From a virus (lineage: Duplodnaviria; Heunggongvirae; Uroviricota; Caudoviricetes), in the IMG/VR virus record IMGVR_UViG_2585427763_000002: a stretch of 42,068 bases of DNA. One strand, written 5' to 3'. Below the pieces are notes generated by a model, which saw only the letters and a program-made list of their open reading frames with translations, had not been told where the DNA came from and searched no databases. Numbering within the stretch: position 1 is the stretch's first letter; each line of letters starts with the position of its first letter. A program made the position numbers and the translations under genes. Of the stretch, positions 40,248 to 42,068 are shown piece by piece.

Positions 40248-40262
40248 GCTTTTTTATACTAA
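40248..40262. other. attR: attR common core (O), junction P-O-B'
   Basis: GCTTTTTTATACTAA preceded by lambda P-arm-like sequence (CTGTTACAGGTCACTAATACCATCTAAGT...) and followed by CTTGAGCG (B'). Confidence 0.9.
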
Positions 40263-40352
40263 CTTGAGCGAAACGGGAAGGTAAAAAGACAAAAAGTTGT
40301 TTTTAATACCTTTAAGTGATACCAGATGGCATTGCGCCATCTGGCAGAGTGA

Positions 40353-40829
40353 TTAACTAAACATCGCAGTAATCGAGGCACTCGCCAGAGAGTGAAAATG
40401 AACGTTAAACCCGACCATCGCGCCGCTGGCACCTTCATCGACATCAATACGTTCTACATCCAGCGCGTGAACGGTAAAAATGTAGCGATGGGTTTCGCCT
40501 TTCGGCGGCGCTGCGCCATCGTACCCGGTTTTACCAAAGTCGGTACGCGTCTGCAAAACGCCGTCTGGCATAGCTACCAGACCAGAGCCAAACCCTTGCG
40601 GTAATACGCGGGTATCAGCGGGTAAATTAACAACTACCCAGTGCCACCAGCCGGAGCCGGTTGGCGCATCCGGGTCATAGCAGGTGACAACAAAACTTTT
40701 CGTTCCCACAGGAACATCATCCCACGCCAGATGCGGTGAAATATTATCGCCATCGTAACCCATGCCGTTAAAGACATGACGATGCGGCAGCTTATCGCCA
40801 TCGCGCAGATCGTTACTGATGAGTTTCAT
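40353..40829 (-). CDS. ybhB: YbhB (PEBP/Raf-kinase-inhibitor-like protein); host gene right of attB-lambda
   Basis: 158 aa recalled as E. coli YbhB; adjacent to B' arm. Confidence 0.85.
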   Translation of the reverse strand: MKLISNDLRDGDKLPHRHVFNGMGYDGDNISPHLAWDDVPVGTKSFVVTCYDPDAPTGSGWWHWVVVNLPADTRVLPQGFGSGLVAMPDGVLQTRTDFGKTGYDGAAPPKGETHRYIFTVHALDVERIDVDEGASGAMVGFNVHFHSLASASITAMFS

Positions 40830-40839
40830 TAGAATGCCT

Positions 40840-42068
40840 CCGGGAAACCTCGGCCTTCAGACCGGGGAGGAAAGGAGGCGGTTTTCCGACTAACTGTACT
40901 TTGCATAATCACATTTTCCTCTTTAGTATGTGAACACATGAAACGCGCATATAAATACCGGTTTTACCCGACAACTGAGCAGGCTGAGCTTTTAGCTCAG
41001 ACGTTTGGCTGTGTGCGCTTCGTCTACAATTCCATCCTTCGTTGGCGTACCGATGCGTACTACGAGCGAAAAGAAAAGATCGGTTATCTACAGGCCAACG
41101 CTCGCCTTACGGCGCTCAAAAAAGAGCCTGAATACATATGGCTGAATGATGTTTCCTGCGTTCCCCTCCAGCAGTCGTTGCGCCACCAACAAGCCGCCTT
41201 TGCTAACTTCTTTGCCGGACGAGCTGCATATCCGGCTTTCAAAAGCAAACGGCACAAACAGGTGGCTGAGTTCACTGCCAGCGCGTTTAAACACCGTGAC
41301 GGCGAGTTGTATATAGCAAAGAGCAAGTCGCCGCTGGATGTTCGCTGGAGTCGAGAATTACCATCTGCGCCGTCAACCGTTACCATTTCCAGAGATAGCG
41401 CTGGCAGGTACTTTGTTTCCTGCCTGTGTGAGTTTGAACCTGTATCAATGCCTGTTACCGCTAAAACGGTCGGCATTGATGTGGGCTTAAAAGATTTATT
41501 CGTCACCGATACCGGATTCAAAACCGACAATCCCCGCCACACCGCTAAATATGCGAAGCGATTAACGCTGCTACAGCGACGTTTAAGCAGGAAGCAAAAA
41601 GGCTCAAGAAACCGTATTAAAGCCCGCTTAAAGGTCGCCCGACTCCACGCGAAAATCGCCGATTGCCGGATGGACAATCTGCACAAGTTGTCCCGCAAAC
41701 TGATTAACGAAAACCAAGTTGTTTGCGTCGAATCCCTCAAGGTGAAAAACATGATCCGCAACCCGAAGCTGTCTAAAGCAATAGCTGACGCAGGCTGGAG
41801 CGAACTTGTTCGCCAGCTCCAGTACAAAGGCAAATGGGCCGGGCGGTCAGTGGTCGCCATTGACCAGTATTTACCGTCCTCAAAATGCTGTAGTTGCTGC
41901 GGTTTCACCATGCAAAAAATGCCTCTTAATGTTCGTAAATGGCACTGCCCTGAATGCGGCGCAGACCATGATCGCGACATTAACGCGGCACGTAATATTA
42001 AAGCTGCCGGGCTGGCAGTGTTAGCCCACGGAGAGCCTGTAAACCCTGAATCGCAGCACGCGGCTTAG
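40840..42068 (+). mobile_element. tnpB-only IS200/IS605-family element (left end and tnpB; right end lies beyond window)
   Basis: Imperfect palindromes (CCTCCGGGAAACCTCGGCC...CCGGGGAGG) upstream of tnpB, consistent with a subterminal hairpin; no tnpA in window. Confidence 0.45.
40938..42068 (+). CDS. tnpB: TnpB (IS200/IS605-family OrfB, RuvC-like RNA-guided endonuclease)
   Basis: 376 aa; C-terminal zinc finger CCSCCG...CPECG; typical N-terminus MKRAYKYRFYPTTEQAELLAQTFGCVRFVYNS; stop at window end. Confidence 0.85.
   Translation: MKRAYKYRFYPTTEQAELLAQTFGCVRFVYNSILRWRTDAYYERKEKIGYLQANARLTALKKEPEYIWLNDVSCVPLQQSLRHQQAAFANFFAGRAAYPAFKSKRHKQVAEFTASAFKHRDGELYIAKSKSPLDVRWSRELPSAPSTVTISRDSAGRYFVSCLCEFEPVSMPVTAKTVGIDVGLKDLFVTDTGFKTDNPRHTAKYAKRLTLLQRRLSRKQKGSRNRIKARLKVARLHAKIADCRMDNLHKLSRKLINENQVVCVESLKVKNMIRNPKLSKAIADAGWSELVRQLQYKGKWAGRSVVAIDQYLPSSKCCSCCGFTMQKMPLNVRKWHCPECGADHDRDINAARNIKAAGLAVLAHGEPVNPESQHAA

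Follow-up and report, generated by a model that had tools for sequence, protein, structure and literature searches.

ISEc42, an element of the IS1341 group, is 1294-1295 bp long, encodes a TnpB of 376 aa, and has TCAT as its left-end site and TCAA as its right-end site; 165 copies are tabulated from 164 E. coli genomes (PMC9956272 Table S1). In ST1193 typing it is a routine entry, sharing contigs with mdf(A), and typing papers place it in B2 lineages. As for the RNAs that guide such nucleases, RAGATH-18-derived RNAs have been documented as TnpB guides (PMC11061315). The element described here lies at the right-hand end of a window of 42,068 nucleotides, by which we mean the whole stretch of DNA that was analyzed. 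With a probability of roughly 0.88, judged from sequence comparison, we read it as a tnpB-only insertion sequence, 1291 bp long, of the IS1341 group in the IS200/IS605 family, one that matches the published description of ISEc42 and for which omega-RNA-directed homing would be expected by homology.

The tnpB gene occupies positions 40938-42068 on the plus strand, as an open reading frame of 376 aa that starts with ATG and ends with a TAG formed by the last bases of the window; PGAP names it "RNA-guided endonuclease InsQ/TnpB family protein." Upstream, separated from it by a gap of 108 nt, is the host gene ybhB (40353-40829, minus strand), a member of the kinase-inhibitor/PEBP family (NF007609, 343 bits). 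Three Pfam domains were found above their cut-offs in the tnpB product, namely HTH_OrfB_IS605 (PF12323, residues 1-45), OrfB_IS605 (PF01385, residues 172-274), and Cas12f1-like_TNB (PF07282, residues 287-354), and the NCBIfam model guided_TnpB (NF040570) scored 369.5 bits against a cut-off of 100. By these matches, the predicted architecture is that of a TnpB, with an N-terminal HTH/WED-REC region, a split RuvC domain (OrfB_IS605), and a zinc-ribbon TNB, the last carrying the zinc-finger motifs CCSCC at residue 317 and CPEC at residue 337. The initial annotation had called a full-length TnpB of 376 aa some 110 bp from the start of ybhB, and both statements hold: the reading frame is free of frameshifts and truncation, in the window and in the strains that are 100% identical to it.

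The best solved natural relative of the protein is ISDra2 TnpB (8bf8; E 8.8e-75, residues 3-369). The RuvC residues assigned from sequence, D181 (41478-41480), E265 (41730-41732), and D347 (41976-41978), all on the plus strand, sit in the motifs GIDVG, CVESL, and HDRD, each of which aligns with its counterpart in ISDra2 TnpB. D347 was matched to ISDra2 D361 by residue counting in the alignment; D181 and E265 presumably correspond to ISDra2 D191 and E278, an assignment based on the motif alignment. Thus, TnpB is intact, with a complete catalytic triad, and is a predicted RNA-guided nuclease. The dN/dS ratio was 0.07-0.19 in comparisons with relatives, and 0.14 against the closest Escherichia paralogous copy, which shows past purifying selection on the protein. 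A promoter and terminator scan gave no sigma-70 promoter above chance for either tnpB or the omega RNA. Two motifs were considered as promoters and are not claimed: TTGCAT-N17-TAGTAT upstream of tnpB, which was noticed by eye and scores only 7/12, and an outward, minus-strand motif directed toward ybhB within the left end (TTCACA-N18-TG-GATTAT, 40934-40905), which is not above chance and does not occur in all relatives.

The boundaries of the element were established by comparing occupied with empty alleles in K-12 and UTI89, together with about 40 relatives, which gave a length of 1291 bp. With junctions marked by slashes, the occupied allele reads TTTCAT/TAGAATGCC...GCCGTCAA/GAGCCCTCC, and the empty site in both K-12 and UTI89 reads TTTCAT/GAACCC. 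Conservation across relatives starts exactly at the first base of the left end (40830-40937, plus strand, 108 nt), and the right end (...GTCAA) falls at window-equivalent position 42120. When 17 enterobacterial relatives from unrelated loci were aligned, similarity started after NTCAT (TTTAT or TTTAC in other subgroups) and stopped at GTCAA; both boundaries are thus independently confirmed. The insertion is clean, without target duplication, and follows the target or TAM-like pentamer TTCAT (40825-40829, plus strand), which the empty-site comparison shows to abut the left end. There are no terminal inverted repeats, and both ends carry subterminal hairpins. The target's CAT (40827-40829) serves as the ybhB start codon on the minus strand, and the element lies between this codon and, on its other side, the bioA stop codon.

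Imperfect palindromes had been noted at the left end, and covariation confirms that they form a hairpin. Its outer stem pairs CCTCC (40837-40841) with GGAGG (40874-40878), and its inner stem pairs CCTCGGCC (40848-40855) with GACCGGGG (40860-40867); the core layout is CCTCC...GGAGG around CCTCGGCC-TTCA-GGCCGGGG. Over 24 relatives, the hairpin is 92% paired, with 33 compensatory cells compared with 11.9 ± 2.6 in shuffled alignments (0/500) and at most 8 in slid controls. Folding the left and right ends alone as single-stranded DNA gave z-scores of -0.5 to -1.1, which are not significant; as single-sequence scores were uninformative, comparative covariation was used instead.

A longer conserved fold comprises the last ~120 nt of tnpB and the 52-nt right end. 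RNAalifold and pair counts over 23 relatives support 38 pairs, with 95% pairing across the relatives, and compensatory change was seen at 21 of the 38, compared with 10.6 ± 2 in shuffles (0/500) and 7-12 in slid controls; the right-end hairpin is helix 8 of this covarying scaffold. In addition, 11 of 12 comparisons show lowered dS at codons 331-376, the expected effect of an RNA that overlaps the gene. These data point to a structured omega RNA (reRNA), predicted to be encoded by the 3' end of tnpB and the right end, up to the transposon boundary. Within the window, the scaffold covers 42003-42068 (plus strand), where its covarying helices overlap the end of tnpB. It then runs 52 nt past the window to ...GCCGTCAA, and the flank that follows is the candidate guide, GAGCCCTCCTTTCTTG..., with TTCAT as the candidate TAM. 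The guide RNA had originally been derived from an element right end lying just beyond the window. That right end was indeed found 52 nt downstream when the sequence was extended, and the last 52 nt of the scaffold and the guide do lie outside; the scaffold helices, however, begin at about 42003, inside tnpB. The accompanying Rfam search produced nothing above threshold, only a sub-threshold RAGATH-18 match at window-equivalent 42025-42090 (29 bits; gathering threshold 44.9) and a spurious snoRNA match. The guide had no match at three or fewer mismatches elsewhere in the window, including the neighboring prophage.

A phmmer search of all frames of the window with IS200C TnpA revealed no Y1 transposase gene (tnpA), giving no match at E<=10. 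The left end runs straight into the tnpB ATG, so that no tnpA lies between the ends, as in the IS1341 group. A search of 86 loci, including CFT073, K-12, and 80 relatives, returned only two Y1 matches. One is an unrelated IS200C about 1.2 kb upstream of a plasmid copy (L006). The other (L082, 2024-3097), in an Endozoicomonadaceae MAG, is a 137-aa Y1 gene that immediately precedes a 5'-truncated tnpB relative, and a transposase of this type is a possible source of mobilizing TnpA. Endozoicomonas genomes carry many copies of the family. Given the lack of tnpA in the window and beside every enterobacterial relative, the ybhB-site copy is non-autonomous. Domains, ends, and the lack of tnpA all agree with the tnpB-only IS200/IS605-type identity proposed in the initial annotation.

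A working model can be drawn from the biology of better-studied relatives. As in ISDra2 and IS605, insertion would be carried out by a Y1 transposase (TnpA), here supplied in trans, by "peel and paste" 3' of TTCAT. Judged from the homologous ISDra2 and Geobacillus IS605, transcription of the omega RNA would run from the 3' end of tnpB through the right end into the flank, so that its guide would be about 16-20 nt of flanking sequence (GAGCCCTCCTTTCTTG...). TnpB and the omega RNA would then cut TTCAT followed by the guide sequence, that is, the empty site remade when the element excises, and repair of the break from the sister copy would restore the element.

To place the element in its population, the site was compared across E. 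coli genomes and proved to be polymorphic rather than fixed: 342 of 5426 complete genomes (about 6%) hold the element between ybhB and bioA, the listed examples all being well-known B2 strains, and each genome carries it in at most two places. From 40300 to 42068, the window is 100% identical to CFT073, Nissle 1917, ATCC 25922, LF82, NU14, and many other strains. In K-12 and UTI89 the site is empty, and ybhB and bioA are adjacent; the ybhB protein accession is the same in the occupied strains CFT073 and NU14 and in the empty strain UTI89. Copies with 97% and 93% amino acid identity are found in Escherichia at kdpC/kdpD and yciI/cls, with the same junctions; thus, the family has moved within the genus in the past. 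One further locus (L089) was left out because it is a chimeric metagenome contig, joining the left flank of the yci site to the right flank of the kdp site, and a metagenome scan with the left-end pattern recovered only six loci. About 45 additional copies, with ~81% identity, are carried on E. coli plasmids of ~97-100 kb (L140, L141, and L149 among them). The one annotated plasmid copy (L006, 4003-5133, NZ_CP027133.1) is inserted at the start codon of a head-processing gene; its plasmid carries phage-type genes and looks P1-like.

The near-isogenic strains NU14 (occupied) and UTI89 (empty) have flanks that are identical over 3300 and 2948 nt but for one base. This base lies 3 nt beyond the right end (L001 7824; window-equivalent 42123) and is G in the occupied and A in the empty allele. 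G is present in every occupied allele examined, and in only 1 of about 4450 empty alleles. We considered empty alleles as scars of excision and rejected this, because the sole G-bearing empty allele (strain 18KM2445) belongs to a diverged sequence background, whose left flank shows 26 differences per 1500 nt, and so reflects natural polymorphism rather than recent precise excision. The association of the base with the element is best read as linkage, with presence and absence apparently swapped by homologous recombination. As a consequence of the G/A difference, the resident guide (GAG...) mismatches the common empty allele (GAA...) at position 3. Homing at the ybhB site may therefore be moot, since the mismatch extends to nearly all empty alleles.

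The ybhB-site copy also has private changes at functionally critical positions of both ends. In the left end, base 1 (40830) is T instead of C, and a GGCC in the stem has become GACC (40861), giving a C-A mismatch; in the right end, A has been replaced by C 6 nt from the tip (L001 7816). These substitutions may impair transposition or the scaffold, and they suggest that the ends of this copy are decaying faster than its nuclease gene, whose reading frame is still intact. Being single-copy and bearing such changes, the ybhB-site copy is apparently immobile in E. coli, and its TnpB-omega RNA system is probably idle in this genome.

Three other accounts of the locus were weighed against the reading as an ISEc42-like, natively tnpB-only transposon, and the setting of the element bears on the least probable of them, that the neighboring lambda-type prophage carries it as cargo. 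This prophage, complete and about 38.9 kb long with lambda att sites, occupies window positions 1331-40262. Its att core, GCTTTTTTATACTAA, occurs at 1331 and again at 40248, the latter being attR (40248-40262, plus strand), which lies outside the element, about 570 nt to its left, with ybhB in between, just as the initial annotation had located the element outside attR and beside ybhB. From 40248 rightward, the window has the same sequence as the prophage-free attB of CFT073, and the element is thus host DNA outside attR. Proximity, within about 600 nt of attR, would favor prophage cargo, as would the IMG/VR provirus calls, which include the element and end at its stop codon: 19 such records (L099-L117) stop exactly at the stop codon of tnpB, as the window itself does. 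The element is nonetheless outside the att core, and it occupies the same site in two strains without the prophage, CFT073 and NU14, in which ybhC lies next to ybhB; in CFT073, the order is ybhC, ybhB, tnpB, bioA. Occupied alleles without a prophage already refute the cargo account, which we regard as practically eliminated, and the window is probably a provirus call that overshoots into host DNA by about 1.8 kb. A decayed IS605, from which tnpA was deleted recently in E. coli, is somewhat more credible and still highly improbable. Elements of the IS605 type with their own tnpA do exist in this species (IS609, ISEc41, ISEc46; PMC9956272 Table S1), and the distant L082 has a Y1 gene directly upstream of its truncated tnpB. 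None of the E. coli IS605 elements in that published table, however, has TCAT as its left site, and relatives from Serratia, Citrobacter, Salmonella, and Klebsiella, as well as those from prophages and P1-like plasmids, share the compact left end and have no remnant of a Y1 gene in it. In these relatives, the distance from the first base of the left end to the tnpB ATG is 105-108 nt (124 nt in L010), and this shared compactness indicates that the tnpB-only layout is ancestral to the subfamily.

The remaining account, that TnpB has been exapted or domesticated to serve the host, is the least improbable of the three, and we nevertheless consider it very unlikely. Such a protein might be an RNA-guided regulator of bioA/ybhB, like TldR, or a barrier to incoming DNA. 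The element is single-copy and stable in several well-known B2 strains, and the tnpB frame is intact, with the dN/dS of 0.14 given above for the closest paralogous copy, despite the private substitutions in the ends. TldR-type exapted proteins, however, typically have lost RuvC catalytic residues or are truncated at the C terminus, and their transposon ends are gone. Here the triad is intact, the protein is not truncated, and the full left and right ends are kept; moreover, the guide fits only the element's own disrupted site, with no other match in the window. The element is also absent from most E. coli, including one member of the NU14/UTI89 pair, and is thus dispensable. A literature search for TnpB together with ybhB found nothing relevant. 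We retain the reading of the locus as a natively tnpB-only, ISEc42-like transposon.

The position of the target in ybhB turned out to be shared by many members of the TCAT-type subfamily. Of 23 independent insertions, 16-17 have a target whose CAT serves as the start codon of the neighboring gene on the opposite strand, on which NTCAT reads ATGAN. Examples are ybhB, kdpD, and the plasmid head-processing gene (L006 3885-3905), which we take to be P1 pro, and the pattern is also seen at L087 2387-2404; further targets are open reading frames of 77-797 aa in Serratia, Citrobacter, Salmonella, prophages, and metagenomes. Reconstructed empty sites have an in-frame stop 6-156 nt upstream, and Shine-Dalgarno-like motifs are present in many of the displaced flanks. 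By comparison, 9% of the ATGA sites in the same flanks are comparable (74/813), which gives a binomial P of about 1e-11. With the start codon lying within the target, the element sits exactly between the Shine-Dalgarno sequence and the ATG, and the native Shine-Dalgarno sequence of ybhB has been displaced by the insertion. On the minus strand, the left end reads GGAGG-N7-ATG before ybhB (left-end bases 8-12; window 40825-40841), and the spacing in the subfamily is 7-8 nt. The subfamilies with TTTAT or TTTAC targets have GCGCG in place of GGAGG at the same position of the stem.

These observations raise the possibility, which we put at slightly below even odds, that the TCAT subfamily is adapted to insert between the Shine-Dalgarno sequence and the ATG, with the GGAGG of the outer left-end stem as a replacement that would leave the host gene translatable. 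The GGAGG carried by the left end is a candidate Shine-Dalgarno sequence; it may instead be sequestered by its hairpin partner, CCUCC. Part of the start-codon pattern is explained by survivorship, in that other insertions are lethal or costly. A literature search for a link to start codons or Shine-Dalgarno sequences found no paper describing the pattern. If adaptive, it would amount to a way of inserting at low cost, with a loose parallel in the self-splicing of IStrons, and would show how a transposon that cannot splice can make its arrival in an operon less costly. The pattern would then also have a bearing on the persistence of tnpB-only, IS1341-type elements, which have no transposase of their own. 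The element itself is ordinary and catalogued, and the start-codon pattern is a modestly interesting lead. The locus is, at the same time, a clean natural example, in which an intact TnpB, a scaffold supported by covariation, the candidate TAM TTCAT, and a natural guide occur together in the widely used strains CFT073, Nissle 1917, and ATCC 25922, and it should be easy to test.

Compared with ISDra2, the element shares the TnpB fold and the catalytic residues, by homology, as well as a right end that terminates in TCAA, a guide RNA predicted to overlap the 3' end of tnpB and the right end, and a T-rich TAM of 5 nt identical to the transposon target (TTGAT in ISDra2, TTCAT here). It differs from ISDra2, which has its own tnpA and is multi-copy, in being without tnpA and single-copy, and its TnpB is shorter, at 376 aa with a reduced C-terminal tail, compared with 408 aa. 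The predicted scaffold resembles the RAGATH-18 guide RNAs of IS607 TnpBs (PMC11061315) in its core, CC..GGAG.G.C ... G.C.CG.UGAA...GGAA, in its position relative to the tnpB stop codon, and in helices that covary; unlike in those systems, the match of 29 bits is below the gathering threshold of 44.9, and the element is of IS605/IS1341 type, whereas theirs are IS607. With ISEc42, to which the element is likened by tabulated properties, all of these properties agree, including length (1291 bp here plus the 4-nt target), single-copy occurrence, and the TCAT and TCAA sites. The element is thus of a kind already known, and ISEc42 is very probably its name.
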